NCBI GenBank assembly: GCA_944392565.1
Contig: CALXWX010000001.1
Coordinates: 1,444-65,443, forward strand
Source: an uncultured Alphaproteobacteria bacterium
GTDB taxonomy: Bacteria; Pseudomonadota; Alphaproteobacteria; Rs-D84
Length of the DNA stretch: 64,000 nucleotides
Direction of reading: 5' to 3'
A program made the translations under genes and the position numbers. Shown piece by piece: positions 34,082 through 58,251 of the stretch. Position 1 is the first letter of the stretch. Each line of letters opens with the position of its first letter. The notes below the pieces were generated by a model. That model was not told where the DNA came from, did not search any database, and saw nothing but the letters and a program-made list of their open reading frames with translations.

Positions 34082-34152
34082 CTGGCTATTATATGCATAT
34101 CAATCTCAATTTGCAAGCACAAGTTTAACACTTTTCACGGAAATCCACTCAA

Positions 34153-36374: not shown

Positions 36375-36388
36375 ATAAGGAGTAACAA

Positions 36389-37255
36389 ATGGCGCAAAAA
36401 GATTCTGACAAAATAAAGACCACCCCAGCTGAGGGGAAAATTGCTGCATCGGTATTGGATGCAGTATTAGAGTTTTGCGAAACGAACGGTCATCAACCTA
36501 ATCCAGAAAGTATGTTGGGAACGTTATACGCGGCTATTTATGCCTATGACCATTCTAAAAGACATTATGATAAAAATGAAAATGACGAAATGTATGCGGA
36601 TAAACTACATAGAGCAAGAGCATTTACATCATACGGCAGAAAGAAAATTCGTGATGCAGGCAAAGAAATTAGCATACGCAAAGCAGAAAAAAATGCCGTT
36701 GGCATTGAACGTGTCTTTCCACGTGCAAAATTGGTGCGTGTAATATTTGGCGAACCTGCATACCAACACATAACAGCACAGAAAAATGATATGGCAGCAA
36801 AAATCTTTGCAGAATATTTTGACACGGTTCTTAATGAAAATTTTTCTAAACGTGATATTGAATTTTTGGAACTGGGGGTTGGTATTGGCGTTACAGATTA
36901 TATGAGAAAAGAATTAGAAAAACCTGCCTTCGTACAAAAAACACAGGCATATAGAATGGGGTATTTTGCAGAAGGCCTACACCCTCGTGCGATAGCGGAT
37001 GCCTATTTATTAACAGAAAGTCGTGTCCGCCAGATACAAAACTGGTCAATTAGAAAATTGCAAAACGATCAAGAGCTGGAAAGATTCTTTAATCTTTACC
37101 AAAATGGCGATATTGATGGCATGCTGGCATTGTTACCACCACAACAACAACGGGCGTATAAATTTCAGCAAGAAAATAAAATGGCGGAATTACCAACAGA
37201 TGATGCTAACAAAGTCGGAGAATGGCTGGCAGACAATTTCAAATTGCAACGATAA
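36389..37255 (+). CDS. Hypothetical protein with a C-terminal sigma-70 region 4-like HTH
   Basis: IADAYLLTESRVRQIQNWSIRKLQ resembles sigma-70 region 4.2. Confidence 0.45.
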   Translation: MAQKDSDKIKTTPAEGKIAASVLDAVLEFCETNGHQPNPESMLGTLYAAIYAYDHSKRHYDKNENDEMYADKLHRARAFTSYGRKKIRDAGKEISIRKAEKNAVGIERVFPRAKLVRVIFGEPAYQHITAQKNDMAAKIFAEYFDTVLNENFSKRDIEFLELGVGIGVTDYMRKELEKPAFVQKTQAYRMGYFAEGLHPRAIADAYLLTESRVRQIQNWSIRKLQNDQELERFFNLYQNGDIDGMLALLPPQQQRAYKFQQENKMAELPTDDANKVGEWLADNFKLQR

Positions 37256-37260
37256 AAGAT

Positions 37261-38355
37261 ATGCAAACACTAGAAAACCTGGAACGGAAATTTTTATCGA
37301 TTATACCAATAAAACCATTTGAATTGGGTGATGTGCGTGCAACCACAGACTCAGATAAACAACTGACAGTCGAACAGGCAAAGCAAGACATTGCAGTATT
37401 GGTACAGATGTTGATAAACACGTATGGGGGCTGGCCTTTTTATCCGAAATTATTGCGGTTGCGCATATTGAATAAACTGAACAGAATCTATGACAAAATC
37501 ACACAACCAATAACCGCATCTGAATTGTTTGCGCAATTAAAACCAATAATTGAAATTATGCCGGATAATCATCTGTGGATTAAACTGGGTGATAATTTGG
37601 CAAAATATCCACGCAAACCACGAATTGATGTTGGCACAAATTTAGCTATAACGCATGGTGGTGGCAAAAAATATTGGATTGATAAAATCGGCAGCATTGG
37701 TGTGATTGCTTTTTCAAAATGCTTTGCACCAGACGACAAAGAAAACATGGAACAGTTCCGCAATCGCATTCGTGATGTTATGGCTGGCACACGCGCAATA
37801 ATCATAGATTTGCGTGATAATGGTGGTGGCAGTCCGCTGATTATGTCAATGATTTGCGATGAAATTATGGGGCCGGTTGGCATTCCGCGCACAAAGCGTA
37901 TGTGGTCGCGCACCACACCCCAGGCACAAGAATTATACCAATATTCCACACTGTCGCGCGACCATATAGACAAAACAGTTGACCCAACAATTGTGGCAGA
38001 TAACACCAAATTCAAATTGCCAACCGATTACAAACCGTTGTATGACCGCCCAATTTATATTTTACAAAATAACAAAACCGCATCATCGGCGGAACACTTG
38101 CAGGCGCAATTACGATATCATCCACAAATGCAAATCGTTGGCTCAAACTCATCGGGGTGTATGCAATATACCAACTATCAAACATTGAAATTGGAGCATT
38201 CTGGTATTCTGATTCAATTAGCCAGTGTATATGCCGAATTCTTTGGAATAAAACACTTTGAAACGCACGGGTTTACCCCCGACATCAAATGCCCAGACGG
38301 CACCGATCCATTTGCCGTTGCAATGGCCCAGATTGACACAAAGGAAAGACAATGA
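37261..38355 (+). CDS. S41 (C-terminal processing peptidase)-like protein; no signal peptide
   Basis: IIDLRDNGGG and NNKTASSAEHL resemble the S41 LRxNxGG and G(S/T)ASA(S)E motifs. It is a paralog of the next gene. Confidence 0.6.
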   Translation: MQTLENLERKFLSIIPIKPFELGDVRATTDSDKQLTVEQAKQDIAVLVQMLINTYGGWPFYPKLLRLRILNKLNRIYDKITQPITASELFAQLKPIIEIMPDNHLWIKLGDNLAKYPRKPRIDVGTNLAITHGGGKKYWIDKIGSIGVIAFSKCFAPDDKENMEQFRNRIRDVMAGTRAIIIDLRDNGGGSPLIMSMICDEIMGPVGIPRTKRMWSRTTPQAQELYQYSTLSRDHIDKTVDPTIVADNTKFKLPTDYKPLYDRPIYILQNNKTASSAEHLQAQLRYHPQMQIVGSNSSGCMQYTNYQTLKLEHSGILIQLASVYAEFFGIKHFETHGFTPDIKCPDGTDPFAVAMAQIDTKERQ

Positions 38356-39506
38356 CCAAGATACCAACGATCAGTGAAATGGAAGAATTATTACTGCGTG
38401 ATTCCAAAACGGCAGATTTGGTTGATGGACGTAGTGCCAAATCAAAATCACCAGACACAAAATTGACCGCAGACCAAGTTCGACATGAAGTATCAGTCTT
38501 TGCGCGAGTGTTAATAAATATATATTGTGGTTGGCCTTTTCATAATGAGGTGCTGAAACGCAAAATCTTGAAGACGTTGGTTGATATTCACAAAAATGCA
38601 CACGATATGACGGCGGCAGAACTGCTGAAGCGGCTGCGCCCTGCGATTGAGATAATACCAGACAATCACATTAAACTGCGAATGATGGGGTATGGCATGG
38701 GGGTGCGTACGGCCCTGCGCAAGCCAAGACCAAATGTCGGAACAAATATTGCAGGTAATAAAAAATTTCATACCACACAACATGGCAACATTGGAATTAT
38801 TGCGGTTCCAACGCTATCAGGCTGGACAGACGATGAACGGAAAATGTTTGAGAAACAGTGGCGCACAATTCTGCCACAGTCAGAAATACTTATCATTGAC
38901 CTGCGCGACAATGGTGGTGGCAACAACAAACCATTGTCCGACATGGCAGATTATATTTTAGGCGATGAAAACTTCCCATTTGCACGCAGACAATATATTC
39001 GCAACAACCCAGATGCCAATGCTGTCAAAAAAATATACGAACATGTAAACGGCACCAAGTTCAATATTAAATCAACGACAGATCCCATTATTTACGAAGA
39101 CAACAGCAACAGTGATACATTACCAAAATTTGATGCAACACGTGCAGGTTTTAATGGGCCAATTTATATCCTGATAGACGGTGGTGTAATGTCATCAGGG
39201 GAACTGATATGCACCCTGTTGCACAACCACCCAAAGGCAAAGTTTGTTGGAACAAACACACGTGGTGGCGAAGTGTATGGCTATAACTATGCGTACATAT
39301 TATTACCACATTCACACATGCAGTTTAATGTCGGCTGTGTATATCGTGAATTATTTACAGAAAATTTCGAACTGAACGGTTATACACCCGACATCAAATG
39401 CCTTGATGGCACCGATGCATTTGCCGTTGCAATGACCGAGATTGAAAAAAGCCAAGACATTACAATCGCAGACACCCGAAAGATAAAGGATAAAGCATGC
39501 AGATAA
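38352..39506 (+). CDS. S41-like peptidase paralog
   Basis: IIDLRDNGGG is present with DGGVMSSGE. It is colinear with 37261-38355, sharing GWPF...DIKCxDGTDxFAVAM. Confidence 0.6.
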   Translation: MTKIPTISEMEELLLRDSKTADLVDGRSAKSKSPDTKLTADQVRHEVSVFARVLINIYCGWPFHNEVLKRKILKTLVDIHKNAHDMTAAELLKRLRPAIEIIPDNHIKLRMMGYGMGVRTALRKPRPNVGTNIAGNKKFHTTQHGNIGIIAVPTLSGWTDDERKMFEKQWRTILPQSEILIIDLRDNGGGNNKPLSDMADYILGDENFPFARRQYIRNNPDANAVKKIYEHVNGTKFNIKSTTDPIIYEDNSNSDTLPKFDATRAGFNGPIYILIDGGVMSSGELICTLLHNHPKAKFVGTNTRGGEVYGYNYAYILLPHSHMQFNVGCVYRELFTENFELNGYTPDIKCLDGTDAFAVAMTEIEKSQDITIADTRKIKDKACR

Positions 39507-40207
39507 AGTTAGAACATCTTGATGCAGAAAGTGCATGGCAACGCATTATTCGCGCCCACGAAAGATATCATACAAACCTTAAAAACTATAAATATAGTTA
39601 CGAGATGTTCATCCCTAACGATGACAGAATGCGCGAAATGTTTGAGCAGCCAAAACTGACCGAACAACAGATCCAGCACTATCACGATATTTTTGTTAAG
39701 GAAATATACAAACTGTCAGATTTAACGCACAAAGATGCTGATATAAACAGCGCAATACAGAGATTCCAAAACAGAATTAAAACACTTATTGCACCATTAT
39801 TGCCAGCATGGAATGCAACAATGCCAGAAACATTAAGCATCAAATGCACATATGGATACGGTGGCGGATACTCATCAGGCAGGAACGCAACCATTCTGTT
39901 CCGCATGAGTCGCGACAAGCGAAATGATTATGGTATATACCTGTTACTGATGCATGAATTTGTACACATCTTGATAGAAGAACAGATTATAGGCAAGTAT
40001 AATGTTCCACAAGACCTGAAAGAACGCATTGTTGATATTATCGGTCTGGAATTGTTTAACAAGCCAATCCAACAAATGTATGAGAATTCATTTGCTAATT
40101 CATATATCACACCAGCGGTTATTCGCACAGACCTGGAATCTGCAGTTAAAAAAATGATGACGGACTATACAGCACTAAAACAAGCCCAAGTCACAAAGGA
40201 CAGATAA
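39497..40207 (+). CDS. Hypothetical protein with an HExxH motif (LLMHEFVHIL), putative zinc metallopeptidase
   Basis: Motif only. Confidence 0.4.
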   Translation: MQIKLEHLDAESAWQRIIRAHERYHTNLKNYKYSYEMFIPNDDRMREMFEQPKLTEQQIQHYHDIFVKEIYKLSDLTHKDADINSAIQRFQNRIKTLIAPLLPAWNATMPETLSIKCTYGYGGGYSSGRNATILFRMSRDKRNDYGIYLLLMHEFVHILIEEQIIGKYNVPQDLKERIVDIIGLELFNKPIQQMYENSFANSYITPAVIRTDLESAVKKMMTDYTALKQAQVTKDR

Positions 40208-40758
40208 TGAAAACAGAACAGTTCGAAAACGCAATAAACGACATACATAGCCGAGTAAAGGAACTGGTTATGAATCAGTTGCCAACACTGGATGGTATTA
40301 TGCAGGTCGATAAAATGTCGCCAGAAGACCGAGTTTTCTATGAGGCATACAAAAAATACGGCAACAGAAATCACACTTGGCAAGATTTCAAAGCAATGTT
40401 TAATGGCGATATTGCAACCATGCAGAAAACAGTAAAACATTGGAGGACATGGGACGAAATAAATGATGCATTATCACAAGCATACAATTTAATACCAGAA
40501 ATAAAAAGGTTAATAGACAAGTATAAGTTAGAAACTATCGATGTAACAAAGCCAGAAGAATTTGAACAATATCCAGATTTAGTGGCAGTGTGTGAAGAAT
40601 ATCGCAAAGTGTACAATAGCACACATCAAAATTATTCTACATTTAATCCGCAGGTTGCAAAATTAGAACAAGAATTCGAGAAAAAAGCAAAAACGATAGA
40701 TAAAAACGACAAAAAAGCCAAGATAGATTTAGTTGTAGAATATATAAAAAAAATTTGA
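40207..40758 (+). CDS. Hypothetical protein
   Basis: A 183-aa ORF, translationally coupled (ATAATGA). Confidence 0.4.
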   Translation: MKTEQFENAINDIHSRVKELVMNQLPTLDGIMQVDKMSPEDRVFYEAYKKYGNRNHTWQDFKAMFNGDIATMQKTVKHWRTWDEINDALSQAYNLIPEIKRLIDKYKLETIDVTKPEEFEQYPDLVAVCEEYRKVYNSTHQNYSTFNPQVAKLEQEFEKKAKTIDKNDKKAKIDLVVEYIKKI

Positions 40759-40771
40759 TGAATACATTGAT

Positions 40772-41314
40772 TTGACCAATGGCAATTTTGTTATTGGCGA
40801 ACGCATAGAATTGTATCGTAAAATTATATTACAAGACCAACAAATATTAGAACAGGCAAAAAATTTTGATAATTTATCCGCCGTACAAAAAATTGATTTA
40901 GCCCGTATGATATTAAACAAAAGCGCAGAAATTACCGGTACGCCAACAGGCAAAGTGACTCAAGATGACGCCATACTTGGACCACACGCACTGAAAGGGA
41001 ACCAAACCGCAGGATACGCACACAAAGAGAAAGAATTTTTATTCAGAGCAGAAATTCTTGAACGTTATCCTCTGGCACTTTTTCTAAAAGATTTAGCACA
41101 CGAAGATGCACACAGAATAGACTACTATAATGCAGAATACGGAATGATTGGCACACAACTTATGAAATTTGTGGAAGACAATTATCTGAATGATAATGAA
41201 ATAGGTGTTGAATTATACAAGAAATTTGCCACAGAACAAAGTTCGTACTATATGCACGACACAGTTGCAGCCGCTTTACGTTACAATATAAAATATGACA
41301 CAAAGGATATATAA
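40772..41314 (+). CDS. Hypothetical protein with an HExxH motif (LAHEDAHRIDYYNAEYG)
   Basis: Motif only. The HExxH followed by a YG spacing is shared with 46588-47436. Confidence 0.4.
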   Translation: MTNGNFVIGERIELYRKIILQDQQILEQAKNFDNLSAVQKIDLARMILNKSAEITGTPTGKVTQDDAILGPHALKGNQTAGYAHKEKEFLFRAEILERYPLALFLKDLAHEDAHRIDYYNAEYGMIGTQLMKFVEDNYLNDNEIGVELYKKFATEQSSYYMHDTVAAALRYNIKYDTKDI

Positions 41315-41784
41315 TGTCGCGAATTCATGTCATTGGTGCGCCAGGGTCTGGTAAAACAACATACGCGCGGCGGTTGGCGGCCGCACGCAATTTACCCCTG
41401 TGCCATTTAGATGAGATTTTTCATGACAATTCTGGCACCACTCCACGCAAACGCACCGAATCCGAACGCACAGAAATGGCGGCTGAATTTGCCCAGGGCA
41501 AAGACTGGATATCCGAGGGCGCATCATTTTCCGACTGGGTAAATCCAATCTTAAAACGTGCAACCGAAATACACATTGTATCCCCATCACGCACGATACG
41601 CGTTTGGCGACAGATTAAACGGTATATCCGCCGGAAATTTGGTATCGAGCAGACAACATACCGCGAAACATTACGCGGTCTGTGGGGCGGAATAAAATGG
41701 ACATGGAACTATGACAGTGATACATTACCAGTAATATTAAAGAAAATCCCAAAACGCACCAAAATCAAAAAGGTAAAGGCATAG
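41314..41784 (+). CDS. P-loop kinase of the FlaR/topology-modulation (adenylate-kinase-like) family
   Basis: MSRIHVIGAPGSGKTTYARRLA...LCHLDEIF matches the FlaR-like family pattern. Confidence 0.6.
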   Translation: MSRIHVIGAPGSGKTTYARRLAAARNLPLCHLDEIFHDNSGTTPRKRTESERTEMAAEFAQGKDWISEGASFSDWVNPILKRATEIHIVSPSRTIRVWRQIKRYIRRKFGIEQTTYRETLRGLWGGIKWTWNYDSDTLPVILKKIPKRTKIKKVKA

Positions 41785-41786
41785 AT

Positions 41787-42596
41787 ATGAAATACGTACC
41801 AGATATGAATTTATTGCGTTCTTATTCTGATGTTACAGATCGCCTGCCGGCACCGACACTGGCAGTGTTTGAATTTGACAATAAAAAACTGATTTACTGT
41901 GGCACCAAACATTCCGCAGACGTGTCATTTCAACTGATTGATAAATGTTTTAATGACTATGACATAGATTGCGTAGTAACCGAAGTACACAGAAACGCAG
42001 AACCTGTCAAAATCCAAACACATACACGCAGCCGCAATGAATTGACATATTCTGCACGACTGGGGTACAAGCGTGATATTCCAGTCATACTGGCCGATCC
42101 CAGCAAGTACGATTGGTTCACAGATTTATTAAAGGTTGATAGCAATTACCTAAAACCATTACAGGTGTTTTTCATGCTGGACGATGCGTACACATACAAA
42201 CAACACTTCAAAGAAAACTATTCAATTGAACGCGCGCTGAAAAATACAATTCACAAATACTGGGACGACACACTGCCCCCACCAATGACCCGGGAAGAAT
42301 TTCAAGAATACTTTCTGGAACAATTCGGCATTGAAATCACCGATGATAACATCAGTGATATTTACATCACACACCCTGAATGGCACTGCCCAGACAACAA
42401 TGGCAGTCTGTTGAATAAAATGTGGTCAGATATTGGCATGATTTCACGCGACCCATATATGGTAAAATGCATTTTTGATGCAGTAAATTCACACGATTGC
42501 GTTCTGGCAACATTTGGCGCAGGCCACCTGAACAAGCAAATACGGATTCTGGAACAGGCATTCGGCAAACCAACATTTGTAGATATAAAGGCATAG
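41787..42596 (+). CDS. Hypothetical protein
   Basis: A 269-aa ORF. No family was recognised. Confidence 0.4.
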   Translation: MKYVPDMNLLRSYSDVTDRLPAPTLAVFEFDNKKLIYCGTKHSADVSFQLIDKCFNDYDIDCVVTEVHRNAEPVKIQTHTRSRNELTYSARLGYKRDIPVILADPSKYDWFTDLLKVDSNYLKPLQVFFMLDDAYTYKQHFKENYSIERALKNTIHKYWDDTLPPPMTREEFQEYFLEQFGIEITDDNISDIYITHPEWHCPDNNGSLLNKMWSDIGMISRDPYMVKCIFDAVNSHDCVLATFGAGHLNKQIRILEQAFGKPTFVDIKA

Positions 42597-42598
42597 AC

Positions 42599-43135
42599 AT
42601 GACAGACAAACCAAAAACACTTTATCATGGCTCGCAAAGCGAAATCACAGATGGCTTCATCAGGATGCGACCTGGACACATCAACGGCATGCAGACACCG
42701 ATAACTGCCGCATTCGCAACCCCCAGTTATAGACATGCACGACTGTATGCGGCCATGCGAATAATTTCTAATGGTTGAAAATGGCCCAAGGGGATAGATA
42801 CACTGTATGTAGAGCGCATAAGCCCAAATATTAGCAACTCCAAGGCGTATGTATATGAAGTTTCATCGGACGGCTTTATCCCAGATGGCGATGATTATTA
42901 TTGTCTGAACGATGTGCCAATCTTGAAAACCTATGAAATTGACGTTATGCAGGAAATCAGAAACGAAAATATTAAAGTATATGTCCTGCAAGATAAGGTA
43001 AATTTTGATGACCTGACAGAAGAGGAAGGTCTGGCTTTATGGCGCAAAACATGCAAAACAGGCAACTTCAAACGCTATCTTCCAGAAGAATCAAATCAAA
43101 TTACGACATTTCTTAACAATGGTATGGATAGATAA
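42599..43135 (+). pseudogene. Paralog of 43150-43755 interrupted by an in-frame TGA at 42776-42778
   Basis: Track ORFs 42497-42778 and 42914-43135 are in the same frame. Manual translation across the gap is continuous (…IISNG*KWPKGIDTLYVERISPN…). Both halves align to the downstream paralog (TLYHGSQSEITDGF versus TFYHGSATKIDGDF; YVERISPNI versus FFERISDSI; KVYVL versus EIYVL). Confidence 0.6.
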
Positions 43136-43149
43136 AACAGGGATTGAGC

Positions 43150-43755
43150 ATGAAAAAGAATACTTTTGAACAAGCCACACAACAGATAGAATCACGCACG
43201 TTTTATCATGGTTCTGCAACAAAAATAGATGGCGACTTTTTAGAACCCAAAGAACAATTTAACAGTGTTCAAAACAAACGTGTCGTCGGCGCATTTGTTA
43301 CATCAGATGCAGATTATGCAAAATTTTTTGCCTTGGTAAAATGCATATCGGGGCGCGGTCAATGTAAATTACATGGTAAAAAAATATTTTTTGAGAGAAT
43401 ATCCGACAGTATAAAGCCAGAATTCAATTTGTATACAGTTGTCGAAAAACCAGGCGAAAAATTTATTCACGACAAAGGCACAGAATATTATTCACCCACA
43501 CCAATCAAGATATCTAAAAGGCAAACATGTAATACGGTTGAAGAAATAGAAAAGTTGGGGTATGAAATATACGTGCTGAACGAACCGTTAAAAAATAAAA
43601 CAAGCAAACAAGCCAGTGACAATTCACGCGTTCACTCTGAAATGCACCAGGCAATTGAAAACGGCGCATATCATCGCGTAGATATTGCAAATTTAATTAG
43701 ACAGCAAAAATCAAAAAGTATATTCCACAAACTATTTAATTGGCAAAAAGATTAG
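43150..43755 (+). CDS. Hypothetical protein (intact paralog of the pseudogene)
   Basis: ATG 43150; the ORF track start is TTG. Confidence 0.45.
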   Translation: MKKNTFEQATQQIESRTFYHGSATKIDGDFLEPKEQFNSVQNKRVVGAFVTSDADYAKFFALVKCISGRGQCKLHGKKIFFERISDSIKPEFNLYTVVEKPGEKFIHDKGTEYYSPTPIKISKRQTCNTVEEIEKLGYEIYVLNEPLKNKTSKQASDNSRVHSEMHQAIENGAYHRVDIANLIRQQKSKSIFHKLFNWQKD

Positions 43756-43781
43756 GTACAAACAGACAAAAAGGTACAAAT

Positions 43782-44297
43782 ATGAATGTAAAAATCAGAA
43801 ATGCAGTGCCAGACGATGCGGCCGCAATCCAAAAAATTATTGCAGCCGGATACCGCCGGTCTTTTGCCGGTCTGCACAGTCCAGAATACTTGGAACAGAA
43901 GATTCAGGAATACCTTAGTCCAGCCAGAATTGAAAAAATGGCAAACATAATCCGCAATGAAAATTCTGTAAATATCGTTGCAGAAAACGCGGATGGCGAT
44001 GTTGTTGGCTCAGTCGGCGGTATGAGGGACGAAAACAACAACTGGGAACTGATTGCATTATATGTAGATGAAAATGTAATTGGCGACACCAAATTTGCAT
44101 TATCACTGGTTCAAGAATTTGCCAAACGCATCAAAGATGCCGGTGCAACAACATTTACAACCGGCACCCTGACCGGCAGTCGTGTTTGCCGGCTGTACGA
44201 ATTACTGGGCGGTAAAAAGATAAAAGAATACATCAACGAAAAGCGCGACAATGTATCAGAAACAGTCTTTGAGTTTAACCTGAACCGATTTATTTAA
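43782..44297 (+). CDS. GNAT family N-acetyltransferase
   Basis: The pattern MNVKIRNAVPDDAAAIQKI...ELIALYVDEN...GxG is GNAT-like. The Shine-Dalgarno sequence is aaaagg. Confidence 0.6.
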   Translation: MNVKIRNAVPDDAAAIQKIIAAGYRRSFAGLHSPEYLEQKIQEYLSPARIEKMANIIRNENSVNIVAENADGDVVGSVGGMRDENNNWELIALYVDENVIGDTKFALSLVQEFAKRIKDAGATTFTTGTLTGSRVCRLYELLGGKKIKEYINEKRDNVSETVFEFNLNRFI

Positions 44298-44317
44298 CAT
44301 ACACTACGGAGAAAGAA

Positions 44318-44620: not shown

Positions 44621-45385
44621 ATGCGATTGCAGTGCAATGTTTTGATAATTGCTTTCGTACAATTTGCGCGCGGCATCGGATTTTAAGACCTCTAAGGCAC
44701 GCGGTTTCAGTTTTAATTGTTCCGCGCATTTCACACCACGCGACCGGGCGGCACGCATCAATTTGCCCATAATTTTCAATTCCAATTTATAGTATTCTGC
44801 ATTATCTGGCATGTCTGGAATATCTGTCAGCAACAACAAAATTAAATCACCAATGTTACGGATGTTTTTAACCGGGCGCAGGTCAATAATATGAAACCGC
44901 CCAGCCCCAGCATCAAACAGCATATTGCCTTCGGATGGATCAATTGTGAAATTGGTCGTGGCCAGGTGGTTCAAATCATCAACCAGTTTGTTATACGCAC
45001 TTTGTGGCGCAGATGCCATTATGTGCATCTTTTCAATCGCCACAGATACCGCATTGGCCCGTTGTTGGGCGGTCAATGGTTCTTCGACCAAATCATTTGT
45101 TGGGATGCCATCAACCTTTTTACAGACAGACAACACCACAGTCCCGGACATTGGGTCTGTTAGATTATACAATGGCTGGCCAAAATTGCGGCGACCGTGT
45201 ACATTGTCGGCACGCATATACCGATATGCACCGGATGACAACCTGTCCCGAAACGCTTTATCAATCTTGACAGTATGCGGCACACGCACAACATAACGAC
45301 CGGCATCGTATGTGGTGGCCTCGGTCCCCGAACCAATCGGTTTTTGTGAAATTGCGGACAAGATTTCCGAAATATTCAATCGCAT
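44612..45385 (-). CDS. Protein-kinase-like fold protein (putative)
   Basis: The catalytic-loop-like segment IDPSEGNMLFD...GRFHIIDL resembles the HGDxxxxN...DF/L pattern of aminoglycoside/Ser-Thr kinase-like folds. This is a weak call. Confidence 0.35.
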   Translation of the reverse strand: MRLNISEILSAISQKPIGSGTEATTYDAGRYVVRVPHTVKIDKAFRDRLSSGAYRYMRADNVHGRRNFGQPLYNLTDPMSGTVVLSVCKKVDGIPTNDLVEEPLTAQQRANAVSVAIEKMHIMASAPQSAYNKLVDDLNHLATTNFTIDPSEGNMLFDAGAGRFHIIDLRPVKNIRNIGDLILLLLTDIPDMPDNAEYYKLELKIMGKLMRAARSRGVKCAEQLKLKPRALEVLKSDAARKLYESNYQNIALQSHSK

Positions 45386-45912
45386 TATTCCGCCACCTTT
45401 GAAAACATTTTCATATCACGTGGTTCGCCACGCAGAACAAAGTACTTACGCAAGACACCCTCACACTCATAACCACAACGCAGTGCAACCGCAGCCGAAC
45501 GAATATTCTGTTTATCAAGGGTCAATTGCACACGTTGTAATCCCATGTCAGCAAACCCCATTTCGGTCAGTTTATTTAATGCGCGTGTCATAATGCCACG
45601 GCCATTAAAGCCATGCGCCAGCCAATAACTGATTTCACCCATGTTGTCGTCTGTATCCACAAAGCCAATCTTGCCCACAATATCATCCGCCACCATGATA
45701 AAGTAAGCGCATTTATCATCGCCGTATGATTTTTCAATATTTGCCAGTGTTTTATCGGTTGTGGTATAACCATCAACCCATTCCAAGAATTCGCCCAGGA
45801 ATTCACGATTGGCGTTTATAACCGACAACAACCGTTCGGCATTTTGTGCCGTTGGCTCAAGTTTTACCAGCCGGAAATCACCCATATCAATAATGCGTGG
45901 AAACGAAACCAT
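45385..45912 (-). CDS. GNAT family N-acetyltransferase (RimJ/RimL-like)
   Basis: FNGRGIMTRALNKLTEMGFADMGLQRVQLTLDKQNIRSAAVALRCGYECEG matches the GNAT core. Confidence 0.65.
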   Translation of the reverse strand: MVSFPRIIDMGDFRLVKLEPTAQNAERLLSVINANREFLGEFLEWVDGYTTTDKTLANIEKSYGDDKCAYFIMVADDIVGKIGFVDTDDNMGEISYWLAHGFNGRGIMTRALNKLTEMGFADMGLQRVQLTLDKQNIRSAAVALRCGYECEGVLRKYFVLRGEPRDMKMFSKVAE

Positions 45913-46502
45913 TACTTACCCTTATATTCCGACTTCAGTTTTGTAAAGACCAACTGGTCCATAAATGTGCCATCACTTAGCATAGTTGATGCACGAATAC
46001 GACCATCCAAATGGAAACCACTGCCACTGATAGACTTTTGCGATTGTACATTATCCCCCATACATTGGCGCATAATTCTGTTTGCCCCCAATTCCTCAAA
46101 TGCCTTTTTCATTATCAAGGCCCAAATTTCTTGATTAAAACCCTGGCCCTGAGCAGACTTCACAAACCATACATTGCCAGACTGCACAGATTTATTATTA
46201 CTAAAATAAAATATTCCATGATGGCCAATCAATTTGCCGTTATGAAACACGTACCACACCGCGCCATTTGGATTGACATCACGTTCCTGCTCTTGCTGCA
46301 TTTGCTTTAATGTTTCATCCAAAGATTCCGGCAACGGTTTTTTATAGTCGGGCGTCCAATTCACATACTTAAAATCACCAGGGTTTTCATTCTGGATGGC
46401 ATCCCAAACCAACCGGGCATTTTCTGGGGTCGGTTGCAAAACACGCAATTCCAGACGTTTGGTTTTCAGATCCCGTCTAAATATTTCATAAAATTTTTCC
46501 AT
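45912..46502 (-). CDS. GNAT family N-acetyltransferase
   Basis: NVWFVKSAQGQGFNQEIWALIMKKAFEELGANRIMRQCMGDNVQSQKSISGSGFHLDG is GNAT-like. Confidence 0.6.
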   Translation of the reverse strand: MEKFYEIFRRDLKTKRLELRVLQPTPENARLVWDAIQNENPGDFKYVNWTPDYKKPLPESLDETLKQMQQEQERDVNPNGAVWYVFHNGKLIGHHGIFYFSNNKSVQSGNVWFVKSAQGQGFNQEIWALIMKKAFEELGANRIMRQCMGDNVQSQKSISGSGFHLDGRIRASTMLSDGTFMDQLVFTKLKSEYKGK

Positions 46503-46587
46503 CTACTTTTTCCTTTGATTATCCTGACAATTTTATCATAAAAATCCCATATTCCCAAATAAAAAGCCCCCAATCGGGGGGGCAATT

Positions 46588-47436
46588 TTACTTTCCCTTT
46601 TCTATCATTTGCTGCGCCATCATTTGTAGTGTCTGTCGTGTTGCATTTTCGTATTCATAACGCAACAATTTCAATTTTTGTTTTAACTTTTCAGGCACAT
46701 CATAGCCAGAACTGTACAATCCACGACCATTAAAAGTTAAATATGCACCCCCAACAGAATTAAAATTCTTGGAATACTGGGGCGACAAATTGCCTAACAA
46801 ATGTTGTTTTATTGTATCGTCATTCTGACCGGCACAAGCAAGCACTATACGGCGTTGAATCTGTTGCATGTGTTGGGCAATGTACCAATTTTTTCTGTTC
46901 AACAAATCGTCAATGCCGTACGAAACCGCCATACAAACCTCATCAAATGTTGGAACACCTGTGCCAAGATATGCGGTTGCATATGCGGAAACCTCATCAA
47001 GAGCATACAGTCCCGATATTTCATAATAGTTTTTCATGGTAAACAAAGGGTTGCCATATTTAGCATTTTCCAGATGCTTTGTTTCATGTGCAATCGTCTT
47101 TGGTTCTTCCAATCTCAATAATTCTGCAGTTTCCCGAATAACATCATCTGGCCCCAGAATTAAATCCGGTGCGATTTCATAACGGTAAACTATAACATCA
47201 TTGCTGCCATAACAAGTGTCCCCACCAATCATTGGCTGCCTTCCAGAACGATACGCATCGATATTTAAACTATTTATCGTCCTATTCACATATATAATTT
47301 TAACCTGTTTTTCGGGTTTGTTTTGTGGCGCATCAAGAACAGACGACTGATTTGTCGTCTTTGGTTTAAAAAAATTCAAGATTTTTTCTAAAGTTGCCAT
47401 AGCAACGATTATTGACAACAATACATCATTTGTCAA
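46588..47436 (-). CDS. Hypothetical protein with an HExxH motif (IAHETKHLENAKYG)
   Basis: Motif only. The start is uncertain. Confidence 0.4.
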   Translation of the reverse strand: MTNDVLLSIIVAMATLEKILNFFKPKTTNQSSVLDAPQNKPEKQVKIIYVNRTINSLNIDAYRSGRQPMIGGDTCYGSNDVIVYRYEIAPDLILGPDDVIRETAELLRLEEPKTIAHETKHLENAKYGNPLFTMKNYYEISGLYALDEVSAYATAYLGTGVPTFDEVCMAVSYGIDDLLNRKNWYIAQHMQQIQRRIVLACAGQNDDTIKQHLLGNLSPQYSKNFNSVGGAYLTFNGRGLYSSGYDVPEKLKQKLKLLRYEYENATRQTLQMMAQQMIEKGK

Positions 47437-47506
47437 TATTTATTTTTGAATTTTCCACAAAATATGGCATAATTGCTGAGACAAAATTAAAATACAGGAC
47501 AAATTT

Positions 47507-50332
47507 ATGAAAGCAGATGCACACAAACAGGTTCAATATTTACGCCATGGGATGGAACAATTCCTGGCCGATGAAGACAAACATATCACCAATGGCGCAC
47601 CGCGCCTGCGTGGCGAACAGTACTTTGCGCTGGGCGCATTGACCAAGCTGTCCGACACCCAAATTGCGGCCAGTTATTACAAACTGCCCACTGGGTTTGG
47701 TAAAACCGTAATGTTTTCATACATGGCCCAGGCGTATCTGCTCCAGGCACGCGCCAATGGTGACACAAAGAAACTGGTTATATTGGTGCCACGTTTGAAT
47801 TTGATTAACCAAACCAGCGACAAACTGGACAGCTTTGCCGGATTTAGTGCATCGGAATTTAGCGGCCGCACCAAGGACACCGATGCAGACATCATCATTT
47901 CAACATACCGTTCACTGGATAAACTGGTGGAAACCATTGGGATTGAAAATATCGGCCTAATCTTTGCGGACGAGGCCCACCATGTCACCGGCGACAAAAT
48001 TTCCCAAACAATGACCAATTTGATGAAATCGGTGCCTACAATTGGTTTTACCGCCACCCCATCATACGATGCTGACAAATCGGTTGGCAATGTACTGAGG
48101 ACAGAAATATTTGCAATGACGATTGCCGATGGCGTGCGTGGCGGAATGTTATCACCGGTAAAAAACACCCTGTATTGTTCCAGTATTGTATATGACCTGG
48201 AAAACACACCTGCAACCAGTCAAGGCGAATATGATTATAACAGTATAACCGGTCAGATTGATACAGACACACTGACCAGCGAAATTGCAGACATATACAT
48301 CAATGGCGTTGACGAAGACACCGGTCGCCGATTTATTGATGCCAAGGCAATGATAAACTGTCCCAACATTGAAATGGCAAAACGTCAGGCCGATGCAATT
48401 AACCAACGGGCCGGCCACATCATCGCACGCGCATTTTCATCAGACATGAAAGATTTCGAGATTGAAAAAGCAAAATTCATTGCCGGCAAATACCAGGTTG
48501 CATGCCAGGTTAACACCATGACCGAGGGCTTTGACGACACCACAGTCAGCCTGTGCATAAACTATCCAACACGTTCCGCCGTTCGTGCCGAACAGGCCGC
48601 CGGACGTGCAATTCGTCTGAATGAATCTGATCCGCATAAAATCGCATTTGTAATCGATACAATTTTCAGAAAGCACGACAGTGAAACCAGCGACACCGCT
48701 CTGCAAACCGCACGACACGCAAAACAAGTTTTGTTCAAAGACATCGCCGGCGGAATGGTATTATTCCCAGAAAATTTCAAGGATGGCATCACACATGACA
48801 AACACCATCCACACACCCGTGGCAACCACAAAACCGTAAAACCATATGAAATCATTACATCAACGGAAACACTGCTGGATTTGAATCGTGTCGATACAGA
48901 ACGCGCCAAGGAAGAAGAAATACCAGAAAAAACCGATGAATGGTTGACTGCTACAGAACTTATGAAATATATTTTGGGTGGCAAGGATAAAATTTTACAA
49001 AAACTAATCGCTTTGACCAAAGATATGCCAGGCAAGATTGAAACAAGACAATCTGGCAGCAACACCCCTCTGTGTCTGCATATCAGTGCGATTGAAGAAT
49101 TTTGCCAACTATCAGAATTAAAAATGGTTGGCAGTATACAGCCAAAGTCGAAAGACTGGTTGACCGCAGACGAACTTCGAAAATATTTTGTAGGTCAATC
49201 AGAAAAAATATTAGCAAAACTGCGAGAACTAGCAGAAAAAATGCCAGACAAAATTCAACAAAGAAAATCCGGAGGTGCAACTCCACTATGTCTACATATT
49301 AGCGGAATTGAAGAATTTAGACTTTTATCAGGCCTTGAAAGAAGAACGGAAATCCAACCAAAGACCAAAGACTGGTTAAACTCAAAAGAGGCAAGCCAAT
49401 ATTTTAAAGCAAAACAAATGATCGTTTTGCAAAAAATGAATGAATTAGCTGAAAAGATGCCAGACAAGATTCAGAAAAGACAATCTGGTTCTCTGACACC
49501 ACTATGTGTACACATCGGTGCAATCGATGACCTGGCAAAATATTCGGGATTAGAAAGAAAAGGGAAATTCCCAGCCAAAACAAACGATTGGCTGACAGCA
49601 AACGAATTACACATGCACATCAGAGCAAAAGCCGATAAAATTCTAGAAAAACTCAAAGAATTTGCAAATATGATGCCTGATAAAATCCAACAAAGAGAAA
49701 TCTTCAACGGCCAGTCTCCTTTATGTCTACACATTAGTGGGTTAGATAAGTTTATACAGCTTTCCGGATTGGAAAAAAGAACCACTATTTCTAAAAAGAC
49801 AACCGAATGGTTAACTGCTGATGAATTGACCAACCATTTTATTGGTGGCGCAGGTAAGATTTTAGGAAAACTACGAGAACTGGCCGCTAAAATGACAAAT
49901 GAAATTCAAATTATGCAGTCCGGCTCTCGGCAAGTTCTTTGTCTGCATATTAGTGCTCTGGACAAATTTGCTAAATTATCAAAACTAAAAAGACAAATAA
50001 AACTACAAGCAAAGACCAATGACTGGTTAAATGCAACAGAGCTAGCCAAATACTTTATAGGGGGCAGAGATAAAATATTAAAAAAACTTGATGAATTAAA
50101 AACAACGATGCCAGACAAAATACAAAAAAAACAAAATGGATCCCACACGCCCCTATGCCTGCATATCGATGCACTGGATGAATTTACGCGTTTATCCGGT
50201 TTAACAAGACGTGGCGAAGTCACCCCAGAAAAGTTCCATGCCGGAACTAAAGTTGTCAAGGCAATGACCCAGATGGCAGAATCCAAGAAACAAGCAAAGG
50301 ATACCATCACCCCCGACAACCAATACGAATAA
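47507..50332 (+). CDS. SF2 (DEAH-type) helicase with six C-terminal ~73-aa tandem repeats
   Basis: Motif I is KLPTGFGKTV, motif II is IFADEAHH, and motif VI is QAAGRAIRL. Repeats of the form DWLTA.EL.KYF.G...KIL.KL.EL..KMPDKIQ.R.SG..TPLCLHIS...F..LSGLE.R span about 48935-50235. Confidence 0.75.
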   Translation: MKADAHKQVQYLRHGMEQFLADEDKHITNGAPRLRGEQYFALGALTKLSDTQIAASYYKLPTGFGKTVMFSYMAQAYLLQARANGDTKKLVILVPRLNLINQTSDKLDSFAGFSASEFSGRTKDTDADIIISTYRSLDKLVETIGIENIGLIFADEAHHVTGDKISQTMTNLMKSVPTIGFTATPSYDADKSVGNVLRTEIFAMTIADGVRGGMLSPVKNTLYCSSIVYDLENTPATSQGEYDYNSITGQIDTDTLTSEIADIYINGVDEDTGRRFIDAKAMINCPNIEMAKRQADAINQRAGHIIARAFSSDMKDFEIEKAKFIAGKYQVACQVNTMTEGFDDTTVSLCINYPTRSAVRAEQAAGRAIRLNESDPHKIAFVIDTIFRKHDSETSDTALQTARHAKQVLFKDIAGGMVLFPENFKDGITHDKHHPHTRGNHKTVKPYEIITSTETLLDLNRVDTERAKEEEIPEKTDEWLTATELMKYILGGKDKILQKLIALTKDMPGKIETRQSGSNTPLCLHISAIEEFCQLSELKMVGSIQPKSKDWLTADELRKYFVGQSEKILAKLRELAEKMPDKIQQRKSGGATPLCLHISGIEEFRLLSGLERRTEIQPKTKDWLNSKEASQYFKAKQMIVLQKMNELAEKMPDKIQKRQSGSLTPLCVHIGAIDDLAKYSGLERKGKFPAKTNDWLTANELHMHIRAKADKILEKLKEFANMMPDKIQQREIFNGQSPLCLHISGLDKFIQLSGLEKRTTISKKTTEWLTADELTNHFIGGAGKILGKLRELAAKMTNEIQIMQSGSRQVLCLHISALDKFAKLSKLKRQIKLQAKTNDWLNATELAKYFIGGRDKILKKLDELKTTMPDKIQKKQNGSHTPLCLHIDALDEFTRLSGLTRRGEVTPEKFHAGTKVVKAMTQMAESKKQAKDTITPDNQYE

Positions 50333-50376
50333 AACACCGCCCAACCGGGCGGTATTTTATTAGTCAAACAATATAG

Positions 50377-51570
50377 TTATTCCATATCCCGTGCAGACTG
50401 CCGCTGCAACAATAACTCATTTTGCAAATGCGCAATTACCTTTTGGGGCTGTATCACTATATCATAATTGGTTTCAGAATCAGCATCTTTACGCTGGCCC
50501 GTAGAACGAACAACATCAAAAAAATGATCTGGCGTCAAATTCGGATACACTTGCTTGGCCATGGCATAGACACCAACCAGATAAGGTGTTGACCAAGACA
50601 AACCACCAGTTCCCGTATAGACGTAGTTATCATGCCCACAAAAACCTGCCAACGTACGTCCCCCGGCCGGCACTAAAATCCTGTTAGAATCACCTGTACC
50701 GCGAAGACGGTCATATTCATAAGACCCAACACTATTTGGATCAGAATTCAAAGTTCGATGAATTCTGCTAAAGCAAGCCTTTTCTCCATAAAAATTCCAA
50801 GGATCAGTGGTCAACACTAAAACCCCACTGTTAATAAGCTCATTTATCAACTCAGTACATTCTGGGCTTTTACCCAACATTCCCCAACTAATCGATACCG
50901 CAGAAATACGTTTGTCCTCTGGCAGGCGCAAATTCATAAACAGAATTTTACGTAACGCCTTGGCGTAATTAGAAAAATAAATCTCCCATTGCTTGCCAGC
51001 ATGATCTGACTGAACAAACGGCTTTTCATCTGGTGCACCAGAATAAAAATTTGCTGCAAAATAAACCAATTTTGCATCAGGGGCAACCCCTATACTTTTA
51101 CCGCAAGCCAGACTAGACACTGCTGTTGCATGCATATTTGCAACCAATGGCACATCAGATGGATACCCAATACTTTCATAATGAATCAAGTTATCCTTAA
51201 TTTCCTGATGCGCAGTATCCAATGGATTATCAATTATAGCAATGGTGACACCGCATCCCGTTATACCACGTTCATGCAATTCACGCACCCCAAGCCCAGG
51301 ATCTTTCCCTGACTCTAATATCTTATTTGGCACGAACCCATCTGGCAACTTGTCTGCCCCCGGGAAGACAACATTGTTATCAAAACTCATAACCTTTAAA
51401 GCCTCGCCAGCATCTGATAAATTTACATCAGAAACATCCACATCCAGCAGGGAAAAATCGAATTCACCCATATCCTTAATTGATTTGGAAAAATCAGGAA
51501 TGGCTTTTCTGTGCAAACTCTGTGGTTGTGCGCCTGGATGAATCTTGAAAACAGCAAATTTATTTTCCAT
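50377..51570 (-). CDS. Subtilisin-like (S8) serine peptidase; no signal peptide
   Basis: The Asp is in GVTIAIIDN, the His in MHATAVSS and the Ser in GTGGLSWSTPYLVGVYA (GTSxAxP-like). The Shine-Dalgarno sequence is gaggtaa. Confidence 0.65.
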   Translation of the reverse strand: MENKFAVFKIHPGAQPQSLHRKAIPDFSKSIKDMGEFDFSLLDVDVSDVNLSDAGEALKVMSFDNNVVFPGADKLPDGFVPNKILESGKDPGLGVRELHERGITGCGVTIAIIDNPLDTAHQEIKDNLIHYESIGYPSDVPLVANMHATAVSSLACGKSIGVAPDAKLVYFAANFYSGAPDEKPFVQSDHAGKQWEIYFSNYAKALRKILFMNLRLPEDKRISAVSISWGMLGKSPECTELINELINSGVLVLTTDPWNFYGEKACFSRIHRTLNSDPNSVGSYEYDRLRGTGDSNRILVPAGGRTLAGFCGHDNYVYTGTGGLSWSTPYLVGVYAMAKQVYPNLTPDHFFDVVRSTGQRKDADSETNYDIVIQPQKVIAHLQNELLLQRQSARDME

Positions 51571-51578
51571 GCATTACC

Positions 51579-52124
51579 TCACCGTTCCAAAATCTTTTCC
51601 AGAATGTATTCGTGATGCCATTCGCCGTCAATGAATGCGGTGTCGTGTAAAATACCGACAATTTCATAACCTTGCTTTAACAGATTACCAAGCGAACGCG
51701 TGTTTTTATGTCGAACACCACTTTGTAGTACGTGAACATTATTTTCACGGGCCCACCTTTCAATAATTTGCTTAAATTTTGTCCCCAGACCATTTGATGT
51801 ATATTGTTCTAACATAGTTGTTGCTGTGCTTGCCACACGTCCGGAATAAGGATGACCAACTTGTTTCTTATTTATGTCAGCCATACCAATAAGTTTATTT
51901 CCATCCCACGCACCAACAAACAAATTATTTGGATTGTCATAAATTTGAATAGATTTTTCTTTGTCTTTTTTGGGTTGACCTGCATACTGCCATGTCCATT
52001 TAGCCCCAGGACCGCTTGCAAATTTACTTAAATATTTCATAACGTCTTCATAATCCGTACCACGAATACGGCGAATGGTTACAACCTTGCCATTTTTTAA
52101 CTTGAATTTAATTGCGCGCCTCAT
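51579..52124 (-). CDS. GNAT family N-acetyltransferase
   Basis: GHPYSGRVASTATTMLEQYTSNGLGTKFKQIIERWARENNVHVLQSGV is GNAT-like. The Shine-Dalgarno sequence is gggggatt. Confidence 0.55.
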   Translation of the reverse strand: MRRAIKFKLKNGKVVTIRRIRGTDYEDVMKYLSKFASGPGAKWTWQYAGQPKKDKEKSIQIYDNPNNLFVGAWDGNKLIGMADINKKQVGHPYSGRVASTATTMLEQYTSNGLGTKFKQIIERWARENNVHVLQSGVRHKNTRSLGNLLKQGYEIVGILHDTAFIDGEWHHEYILEKILER

Positions 52125-52466: not shown

Positions 52467-52510
52467 GGAGTCAGAGTCCGGAGTTCTACCGTTAAACTAT
52501 GCCCCAATGC
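52467..52510. repeat. Right copy of the 44-bp direct repeat (partial tRNA-Gln 5' part) bounding the island
   Basis: Identical to 34038-34081. Downstream sequence diverges from the tRNA. Confidence 0.85.
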
Positions 52511-58247: not shown

Positions 58248-58251
58248 TACA

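Follow-up and report, generated by a model that had tools for sequence, protein, structure and literature searches.

What is a compact array of predicted peptidases, acetyltransferases and kinases doing beside a tRNA gene in the chromosome of a gut bacterium? The question was raised by a locus in a 64,000-nucleotide stretch of DNA (the 64-kb window hereafter), which is chromosomal DNA of an uncultured alphaproteobacterium seen in gut and rumen metagenomes only. An earlier reading, made from the sequence alone, had assumed that these genes form an island, and had offered translocated effectors, a toxin/immunity set or a new defense module as possible explanations. In the present analysis, open reading frames (ORFs) were called and then scanned against Pfam, NCBIfam and PADLOC, and other loci (designated L002, L003 and so on) were compared with the window. 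It was found that window positions 34082-52466 are an 18.4-kb genomic island inside the 5' half of a chromosomal tRNA-Gln(CUG) gene, and that its cargo is an array of exchangeable cassettes and not a single multi-protein machine.

Boundaries of the island and its attachment site

The limits of the island are marked by an intact tRNA gene and by two copies of a direct repeat:

34004-34077, minus strand: intact tRNA-Gln(CUG) gene, located by ARAGORN and by reading of the sequence; its 5' 40 nucleotides (nt) and promoter come from the island side
34038-34081: left copy of a 44-nt perfect direct repeat, located by repeat search; tRNA positions 1-40 plus 4 nt upstream
52467-52510: right copy of the 44-nt direct repeat, a displaced tRNA-Gln 5' fragment followed by the ancestral promoter-like flank

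The repeat copies are identical at 44 of 44 nt and enclose 18,385 bp, running from the ABC exporter gene through the last gene for a GNAT acetyltransferase. Both copies run into a TTGCAA-17-TATAAT promoter-like sequence; the tRNA has therefore received a new 5' half and promoter from the island, the old ones now lying at the far end, and the flank of the right copy agrees with that of the empty site in relatives. When metagenome contigs were scanned with the 44-mer, 14 loci were returned. Empty sites were seen in at least five of them (L068, L071, L074, L079 and L081), in which the full tRNA and repeat run directly into the CBAH, DUF1015 and, where the locus reaches, autotransporter genes located past the island in the window; L070 and L078 were consistent with an empty site as far as they extend. 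In the strain represented by L002, an identical repeat pair bounds a shorter, 13-kb variant that lacks the helicase, the S8 subtilase and the last GNAT. Thus, the island that had earlier been assumed is now demonstrated by its 44-nt direct repeat and by the empty sites of relatives. A tRNA gene with a 5' fragment of itself upstream is among the configurations that Islander accepts as valid (PMC4383910), and the layout is therefore already known.

On a 935-kb contig of a related species (L069), the tRNA-Gln(CUG) site is occupied by a different island, which carries, adjoining the repeat, an HTH_17/AlpA excisionase-like gene and tyrosine-integrase N-terminal domains (Arm-DNA-bind_3, Phage_int_SAM_3), and which also encodes an AAA_15/AAA_21 ATPase matching defense families (E = 1e-23 to 1e-15). 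In the window, the scan of island ORFs, which took in every ORF of 95 amino acids (aa) or more and one of 70 aa, detected no integrase or recombinase domain, and tblastn with the L069 recombinase, excisionase and integrase as queries gave no match. Without an integrase, the island is probably either immobile or mobilized in trans. A search of viral contigs for the 44-mer found no phage carrying the attachment site, and terminal inverted repeats were rejected, since the two island ends had a promoter-like 41-mer alone in common. Base composition does not set the segment apart: its GC content is 0.413 and that of the flanks 0.421 and 0.429, and the tetranucleotide correlation is only slightly lower for the island (0.93, compared with 0.96-0.97).

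Other traces of integration were observed at tRNA genes. In L069, a large serine recombinase with Resolvase, Recombinase and Zn-ribbon domains is encoded at positions 626-2131, immediately 3' of this tRNA-Gln, by an ORF that continues into the tRNA. The opposite side of tRNA-Gln(CUG) may therefore serve a second mobile element of a different kind. Partial tRNA duplications also adjoin homologous cargo in L011 (3569-3617 and 3758-3806; the 3' half of tRNA-Gln(CUG)), L067 (1783-1805 and 1965-1987) and L064 (9794-9816 and 11026-11048), with the 3'-end duplications involving tRNA-Gln(UUG) and tRNA-Pro. They resemble scars left where elements have integrated repeatedly at tRNA genes.

Exchange of cargo among strains and species

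As had been supposed, the genes between the repeats are island cargo and not scattered core genes of this genome, and the enzyme assignments made earlier largely held up in profile and structure comparisons. What found no support is the idea of one functional, co-inherited module, since the cargo differs between strains and homologues of single genes occur alone elsewhere. When L002 and L003 were compared with the window, the backbone was 97-100% identical, and the protein with an HEFVH motif and one GNAT were 54-56% identical; the middle block, from the HEFVH gene through the gene for a 100-aa protein, had wholly or partly given way to other genes, among them two His_Phos_1 phosphatases. In L011, the HEFVH protein is 99% identical to that of the window, although identity falls to 74% for the neighboring ABC exporter and to 44% for the S41 protein. 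Nonetheless, the order of ABC exporter, GNAT or 288-aa protein, S41 and HEFVH genes is common to the window, L010 and L011. In L006, where the S41 protein is 47% identical, the interval from the ABC gene to the helicase gene contains five GNATs (of 21 called genes), an APH/choline kinase, S41 and S51 peptidases, a methyltransferase, His_Phos_1, PNP_UDP_1, an MFS pump and a P-loop kinase.

The genome with the L006 island has its protein-kinase-like gene at a separate locus, and in other species homologues of the protein-kinase-like gene of the cargo are lone genes directly after tRNA-Pro or tRNA-Gln(UUG). The cassette in L064, a single gene in 1.2 kb, has on either side a copy of a 23-nt repeat of the tRNA 3' end, the two copies matching imperfectly (83%). 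The homologues of two species (L065 and L067) adjoin MarR and an outer-membrane efflux gene (OEP); a full RND pump (ACR_tran) is visible in L065, and in L067 the contig ends within the neighboring gene, which carries no annotation.

The exporter and the S41 pair

The first operon opens with the following genes:

34587-36374, plus strand: ABC exporter, first gene of the island (Pfam ABC_membrane and ABC_tran, E = 1e-36 and 2.5e-17)
36389-37255, plus strand: 288-aa protein with a weak sigma-70 region-4-like helix-turn-helix (Sigma70_r4, E = 0.022, sub-threshold)
37222-38355, plus strand: S41-like peptidase paralogue 1 (Pfam E = 7e-18; IIDLRDNGGG and TASSAE)
38352-39506, plus strand: S41-like peptidase paralogue 2 (Pfam E = 6e-19; IIDLRDNGGG and VMSSGE)

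That an ABC exporter opens the island, as the sequence-only reading had it, is borne out by the two Pfam domains. The protein is a half-transporter with one transmembrane and one nucleotide-binding domain and has no C39 peptidase or CLD domain; its best NCBIfam matches (NdvA, MsbA and HlyB), and likewise PrtD, fell far under their cut-offs. The exporter is kept at the island start in L006, L010 and L011 with 67-95% identity. The 288-aa protein, possibly a regulator judging by its weak helix-turn-helix match, is present at 99-100% in L002 and L003; L006, L010 and L011 lack it. Between the tRNA repeat and the exporter gene, and divergently transcribed, sits a conserved small ORF (34153-34323, minus strand) that was called as 56 aa in all strains and has one hydrophobic helix.

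The two S41 paralogues, which are 35% identical to each other, scored 65.2 and 68.6 bits against a Pfam cut-off of 24. They are indeed in tandem and both contain IIDLRDNGGG, but TASSAE, earlier ascribed to the pair, is present in the first only, the second reading VMSSGE. Tandem S41 pairs were also found in L007, L008 and L009. Alignment of 13 sequences, with relatives down to 19% identity, revealed invariant His117, Ser288 (of TASSAE), Glu291 and Glu347, and by eye the position expected for the dyad lysine of Ctp/Tsp proteases, just past invariant Gly312, is occupied by Cys or Gly. No PDZ domain was found in the pair by the Pfam scan. When the family profile was compared with the PDB, IRBP modules were the best matches (1e-24), followed by uncharacterized Bacteroides proteins and Ctp/Tsp proteases; NSR, the nisin-resistance peptidase (4y68, E = 1.8e-10), and CPAF (2e-10) were also matched. 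The pair are S41-fold proteins, of a putative His/Ser type, for which catalytic activity is plausible. A scan of the genome collection with the S41 alignment was of limited use, the back-translated DLRDNGG pattern being too generic and returning mostly ordinary S41 genes; among the matches listed, the relevant loci were L010 and L011.

Three HExxH proteins

Downstream of the S41 pair, and again further along the island, are genes whose products contain HExxH motifs:

39497-40207, plus strand: 236-aa putative gluzincin, HEFVH, with a Glu 19 residues past the second His; its family has no Pfam model
40207-41314, plus strand: gene of 367-368 aa with HEDAH in its C-terminal half, split into ORFs of 183 aa and 180 aa
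46588-47400, minus strand: 270-aa putative gluzincin, HETKH (alignment and model); the ORF extends to a TTG at 47436

Four HExxH motifs were counted against 0.19 expected from composition (4,990 residues; the probability of three or more is 0.001). The three proteins reported earlier do have the motif, which is invariant in two of the three families; a fourth motif, HERYH, in the 236-aa protein, had been overlooked. The HExxH-x8-10-YG spacing that was said to be shared by the HEDAH and HETKH proteins holds in the former (x8) and not in the latter, which has x5. Homology among the three proteins was rejected, as BLASTP and hhalign were used and the probabilities were below 2%. They represent up to three unrelated gluzincin-like proteins, of which one is frameshifted.

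The HEFVH family comprises 131 representative clusters. In an alignment of 60 sequences His153, His157 and Glu176 were invariant and Glu154 was conserved in at least 90%, and the resulting HExxH-x18-E spacing is the one found in gluzincins. The searches of Pfam and the PDB with this family returned no matching family and no solved relative. A few members bear PDZ or GNAT fusions, and distant relatives adjoin recR and ksgA, or come after a GNAT. In the HETKH family (16 sequences), His105, Glu106, His109, Asp135 and Glu136 were invariant, and the model (predicted local distance difference test, pLDDT, 83.8) presents a small sheet followed by the HExxH helix and a Glu-bearing helix; Foldseek against the PDB gave nothing significant, the best match being collagenase ColH (E = 0.2).

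The HEDAH gene, previously described as 40772-41314, is in fact part of the longer gene listed above, which is divided by a +1 frameshift, an extra (eighth) A in the A8 run at 40746-40753. Two relatives, P0048 and P0059, encode the intact protein, which implies a run of A7. The 180-aa split product occurs on 27 contigs and is therefore a real allele, and it could be either a pseudogene or a slippage-based on/off switch. Conservation of the HEDAH motif was seen in relatives of at least 96% identity, the only ones compared.

Kinases, acetyltransferases and the remaining cargo

The rest of the island encodes the following:

41314-41784, plus strand: 156-aa P-loop kinase of the FlaR/adenylate-kinase-like class (PRK08118, E = 3.5e-18, below the NCBI cut-off)
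41787-42596, plus strand: 269-aa protein with GTKHS and GAGHL motifs (weak Pfam match at GAGHL, E = 0.035)
42497-43135, plus strand: decayed paralogue of the 203-aa gene, in fragments in two frames (alignment of a 93-aa ORF)
43144-43755, plus strand: 203-aa protein with an N-terminal FYHGS motif; sole weak match, CTD6 of ABC-3C (E = 0.006)
43740-44297, plus strand: GNAT-fold protein, FR47-like (23.0 bits against a cut-off of 22.1); likely start, ATG at 43782
44318-44620, plus strand: 100-aa protein with no family match; homologues 55-59% identical in L002 and L003
44612-45385, minus strand: 257-aa minimal protein-kinase-like enzyme (alignment and model; IDPSEGN ... IIDLR)
45385-45912, minus strand: GNAT of the RimL/Acetyltransf_3 type (Pfam E = 5.5e-19; RimL model E = 4.6e-15, under cut-off)
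45912-46502, minus strand: GNAT of the RimL/Acetyltransf_3 type (profile scans); allele replaced (54% identity) in L002 and L003
47507-50332, plus strand: 941-aa superfamily 2 (SF2) helicase, ResIII/DEAD, with six C-terminal tandem repeats of 72 aa (profile scan and repeat search)
50377-51570, minus strand: S8 subtilase without a signal peptide (38.9 bits against a cut-off of 21.8)
51579-52124, minus strand: GNAT (GNAT181), ArsN/PAT-like (Pfam E = 5.5e-8; ArsN1a E = 1.3e-9)

A protein-kinase-like fold of the 257-aa protein, proposed in the sequence-only reading, is confirmed at the level of the predicted structure. Across 21 aligned sequences the IDPSEGN and IIDLR motifs, and with them Asp149, Asn154 and Asp168, were invariant, and an invariant Arg34 seems to replace the ATP-binding Lys. 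In a Foldseek search, the AlphaFold model (pLDDT 90.9) had APH(2'')-IVa at the top (2e-4), with NleH2 (4e-4) and also eukaryotic kinases, at probabilities of 0.9-1.0; for APH(2'') and NleH2 the probabilities were 0.97-1.0, but the template-modeling (TM) score was only about 0.3, with 13-17% identity. The protein has no Pfam family, and its sole PDB profile match was OspG (E = 0.16). All 51 clusters of the family come from a single gut alphaproteobacterial lineage. The other kinase named earlier, the FlaR-like P-loop kinase, was recovered at the E-value listed; it resembles the FlaR family ('DNA topology modulation protein'), scored 26.5 against a cut-off of 27 for AAA_33, and has a 65% identical homologue in L006.

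All four GNATs recognized earlier passed the Pfam gathering cut-offs (69.7, 44.3, 33.5 and 23.0 bits), three clearly and the FR47-like one narrowly. The GNAT at 51579-52124 scored 38 bits on ArsN1a, for which the cut-off is 170, and has a 69% identical homologue in L006. The subtilase had been credited with an intact triad, and indeed it exceeds the Pfam cut-off, and the Asp of IIDNP, the His of NMHAT and the Ser of GLSWSTP are aligned with a solved subtilisin-like structure (9ues_B). The lack of a signal peptide in this enzyme is unremarkable, since the solved structures that it matches best include intracellular subtilisins. More generally, the earlier statement that none of these proteins has a signal peptide agrees with the finding that no cargo protein has an N-terminal hydrophobic segment, taking the ATG start of the HETKH gene, and the cargo enzymes are presumably signal-less and cytoplasmic. 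RTX (GGxGxD) motifs, as expected of type I secretion substrates, were likewise absent from every cargo protein.

The helicase is counted as cargo because it is absent from the L002 island. Its repeats (window 48920-50250, residues approximately 473-911, period 216 nt) form an unannotated domain with no Pfam match and the consensus K(T/S)xDWLTAxEL...KIL.KL.EL...MPDKIQ.R.SG...PLCLHI..ldeF..LSGL; the homologue in L006 has 1,078 aa and is 37% identical. Among the other ORFs, the 269-aa protein, for which a single-sequence PDB search gave no match, may belong to the TraB/PrgY/GumN (Tiki/erythromycin-esterase) superfamily, a lead given by its motifs. The 203-aa protein gave no match in Pfam, in the PDB or, by tblastn, in plasmids; it had been suspected by eye of being an Arr-like ADP-ribosyltransferase, an assignment that was dropped as no tool supported it. 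In the apparent 550-bp gap upstream of it is the decayed copy (42497-43135), in which an N-terminal fragment, the 93-aa ORF, matches the 203-aa protein over residues 16-69 of the latter (29% identity, E = 3e-7).

Promoter-like and terminator-like elements

The island genes make up three to four tightly packed operons. Upstream of the first of them is the following element:

34362-34402, plus strand: promoter-like element, TTGTTT, 17 nt, TGATAAAAT, approximately 185 nt upstream of the ABC gene

An element with 80% identity to it precedes GNAT181, at 52145-52185. Four copies of the palindrome ATTTTAT(N)ATAAAAT were counted against 0.2 expected, at 34381-34395, 46530-46544, 52152-52166 and 8971-8985; three of the copies are just upstream of island operons, and two lie exactly 28 nt from the start codon. 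Its sequence resembles an extended -10 promoter (TGATAAAAT), TTGnnn lying 17 nt before it, and is probably the strong promoter consensus of this organism. The palindrome ATTTTATNATAAAAT, found upstream of three island operons, was considered as a shared operator, a sign of co-regulation, and was rejected as such: it resembles an extended -10, the -35 box lying 17 nt upstream of it, and a copy is present outside the island as well, at 8971. Being promoter-like and present at 8971, it therefore gives no evidence of island-specific regulation. A terminator-like hairpin (CCGCCCAACCGGGCGG plus a T run) was noted in three copies at cassette or operon boundaries (44588-44613, 50332-50357 and 52179-52204), and similar hairpins bracket the lone kinase cassette of L064 (9817, 10845, 11510 and 11964).

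Surroundings of the island

The flanking core genes encode ClpX, a CcrM-type methylase, PGK, DsbA, SurA and two members of the bile salt hydrolase family, and the island is bracketed by two autotransporters of the Chlamydia-PMP type. The bile-salt-hydrolase-like genes are tandem choloylglycine-hydrolase-family genes (57159-59358), of which the empty-site relatives show one; the tandem is consistent with a gut-lumen lifestyle. The literature on RF32-type gut Alphaproteobacteria yielded nothing useful about lifestyle. Upstream of the island (22715-30455) are three large ORFs of 834, 742 and 840 aa with no Pfam domain, and together with the two PMP-type autotransporters and OmpA-domain proteins they are a probable block of surface proteins. 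Dozens of contigs hold exact copies of the island proteins, which are annotated as 'MAG: hypothetical protein [Alphaproteobacteria bacterium]'.

What the cassettes may do

The classes that recur are acetyl- and phosphotransferases, phosphatases, peptidases, a methyltransferase, a nucleoside phosphorylase and two kinds of pump; proteins of these classes are the ones by which antibiotics, antimicrobial peptides and antimetabolites are inactivated or expelled. The common denominator of the cargo would be enzymes that acetylate, phosphorylate or hydrolyze substrates inside the cell, together with an exporter. Most simply, the locus could be a flexible, integrase-less tRNA island of exchangeable cassettes that serves as a toolkit to inactivate and export toxic compounds, a tentative reading in which our confidence falls somewhat short of even. 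Its targets would be compounds encountered in the gut, whether antibiotics, antimetabolites or antimicrobial peptides; each cassette would act alone, and recombination between strains and species would reshuffle the set. We lean toward detoxification because of the recurrence in L006, the top fold match of the kinase to APH(2''), the relationship to NSR, the RimL- and ArsN/PAT-like GNATs and the MarR and efflux neighbors; the consensus-like extended -10 promoters on the operons were also counted in its favor.

Several results weigh against it. Every specific family match is far under its curated cut-off, the PDB sequences nearest to the S41 pair are non-catalytic IRBP modules, and the effector kinase NleH2 fits the kinase fold approximately as well as APH, with OspG as the sole profile match. 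For the three HExxH families, as for several ORFs, there is no functional precedent, and the repeat-bearing helicase has no obvious role in detoxification. Alleles of 54-56% identity within a backbone that is nearly identical are seen more typically at conflict loci than among genes for detoxification, and the adjacency of MarR and RND genes may be an accident of a common tRNA hotspot.

Next in standing, although we regard it as doubtful, is the absence of any common function, the site being a recombination hotspot that collects easily transferred small single-gene functions such as GNATs, kinases and peptidases. Such a hotspot agrees with the independent inheritance of the cassettes, the distant HEFVH members among housekeeping genes (recR, ksgA), the frameshift in one gene and the decay of another, and the quite different cargo at the same site in a relative (L069). 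It agrees less well with the recurrence of the same enzyme classes in a species with 47% identity (L006, with five GNATs of 21 genes), with the order of ABC, GNAT or 288-aa, S41 and HEFVH genes kept in three lineages along with a conserved S41 tandem, or with tightly overlapped operon genes preceded by strong promoter-like sites.

An undescribed conflict locus, that is, an anti-phage defense island or a bank of immunity and toxin genes in which enzymatic effectors are coupled to a helicase sensor or motor, is unlikely. Its location at a tRNA hotspot, the strongly diverged alleles within an identical backbone, the ATPase of the L069 island that matches defense families and the PNP_UDP_1 of the L006 version would all suit it, as would the weak matches of the helicase to HsdR, PbeA and HamB in the PADLOC scan. 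However, when the 19 island proteins were compared with PADLOC-DB v2, only generic ABC-ATPase, SF2-helicase and weak subtilase cross-matches were obtained, while the L069 ATPase, used as the positive control, was recovered at E = 5e-23. The earlier statement that the composition is that of no known defense system is thus upheld as far as PADLOC is concerned, and the same generic ATPase, helicase and subtilase similarity is the only way in which the island proteins match that database. In addition, there are no nucleases, STAND NTPases, toxin delivery domains or regular toxin-immunity pairing, the components are not co-inherited, and the block of helicase, S8 and GNAT is absent from one strain (L002). 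A bolder form of the idea, which we consider more improbable still, is that the tRNA-Gln hotspot of this lineage hosts an undescribed conflict system or cassette bank. Its orphan enzymes would be the S41 pair of the His/Ser type, the three unrelated HExxH families, the OspG/NleH-like minimal kinase, several GNATs and the repeat-bearing helicase; phages or competitors would be countered by them as effectors or immunity factors, with alleles swapped under diversifying selection.

Translocated effectors are more improbable again. The proposal would combine an OspG/NleH-like kinase, a CPAF-like S41 and NleC/NleD-like zincins with a secretion system encoded elsewhere, and it can draw on the Foldseek match to NleH2 (probability 1.0, TMt 0.45), OspG as the sole PDB profile match, the weak CPAF matches, the absence of signal peptides and the Chlamydia-type PMP autotransporter adhesins at the flanks. 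Nonetheless, no secretion-system gene was found in the 64-kb window or in any fetched locus, and the island has no gene for a membrane fusion protein (MFP) or outer membrane protein (OMP) of type I secretion, so that the ABC exporter is without MFP/OMP partners; RTX motifs are missing as well, and the island is no type I secretion locus. Members of the HEFVH family are found in many bacteria in the company of housekeeping genes, the kinase homologues adjoin MarR and efflux genes, the nearby bile salt hydrolase genes suggest a lumen-dwelling lifestyle, and the fold similarity is weak (TM about 0.3), with APH equally good. The effector, toxin/immunity and new-defense explanations first offered for the locus found no positive evidence; no secretion system, toxin delivery domains, small immunity partners or defense hallmarks were seen in the window. 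Lastly, a biosynthetic cluster in which proteases, GNATs and a kinase tailor a precursor peptide that the ABC exporter exports is very improbable: the tight operon that opens with an exporter followed by peptidases, the small conserved upstream ORF of 56-68 aa and the occurrence of S8, GNAT and kinase families in clusters for ribosomally synthesized and post-translationally modified peptides would fit it, but there is no recognizable core synthetase, cyclase or precursor family, the gene content varies between strains, and the exporter has no C39 peptidase domain.

If the cassettes of the favored detoxification toolkit do inactivate antibiotics or antimicrobial peptides, they would be unrecognized resistance determinants of the gut; should they prove to be conflict genes, they would represent effector types that are new. 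An odd gene cluster has become a precisely bounded island with an insertion site, empty-site controls and natural variants, which makes its cargo testable. The analysis also exposes lineage-restricted or unannotated families, namely the His/Ser S41 pair, the broadly distributed HExxH-x18-E family and the minimal kinase family, in a little-known, uncultured group of gut Alphaproteobacteria.

Comparison with known systems

The individual enzymes can be compared with characterized relatives. Like CPAF and the tricorn-type (S41B) proteases, the S41 proteins have invariant His, Ser and Glu residues and no dyad Lys, and they show weak NCBIfam and PDB matches to CPAF; they differ in being much shorter (approximately 380 aa) and in having no signal peptide, and the CPAF matches span about 50 residues, the triad being compared by sequence only. 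The kinase-like protein shares with APH(2'') and with NleH/OspG the kinase fold, the invariant catalytic-loop Asp and Asn and the DFG-equivalent Asp, and is set apart by Arg at the position of the ATP-binding Lys, the lack of a Pfam family and its distribution in a single lineage.

At the level of gene sets, two known systems come nearest in function as analogies, the nisin-resistance operon and the microcin C self-immunity set, and the island belongs to neither. The nisin-resistance operon of Streptococcus agalactiae (NSR, NsrFP and a regulator) is similar in its TASSAE-type S41 protein, with a conserved His replacing the Ser-Lys dyad, and in the position of the S41 gene beside an ABC transporter and a possible regulator. 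In contrast, NSR is membrane-anchored and outward-facing, whereas the island S41 proteins are without anchor or signal and are closer to IRBP modules, the exporter is of type I and not of the BceAB type, and the island has no two-component system. Self-immunity to microcin C is provided by the pump MccC, the RimL-like acetyltransferase MccE and the serine peptidase MccF. By analogy, the island may be compared to this set, as it too has an exporter, a RimL-type GNAT and a serine peptidase, and L010 and L011 have the order ABC exporter, RimL-like GNAT, S41; the analogy would be one of an ABC for an MFS protein and of S41 for S66, and genes for microcin synthesis are absent from the island.

As an element, finally, the island is best compared with the Islander-type or P4-like tyrosine-integrase islands. 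Unlike those, the window copy has no integrase or excisionase, its GC content equals that of the flanks, and it is the 5' half of the tRNA, with the promoter, that is duplicated here, the usual case being the 3' end. In common with them, it has an intact tRNA and a displaced fragment as a perfect direct repeat at its ends, empty sites in relatives, variable cargo, and a related island with an AlpA-like excisionase and an integrase remnant. Overall, the architecture is that of an ordinary flexible tRNA island, while the contents are unusual, uncharacterized and lineage-specific.

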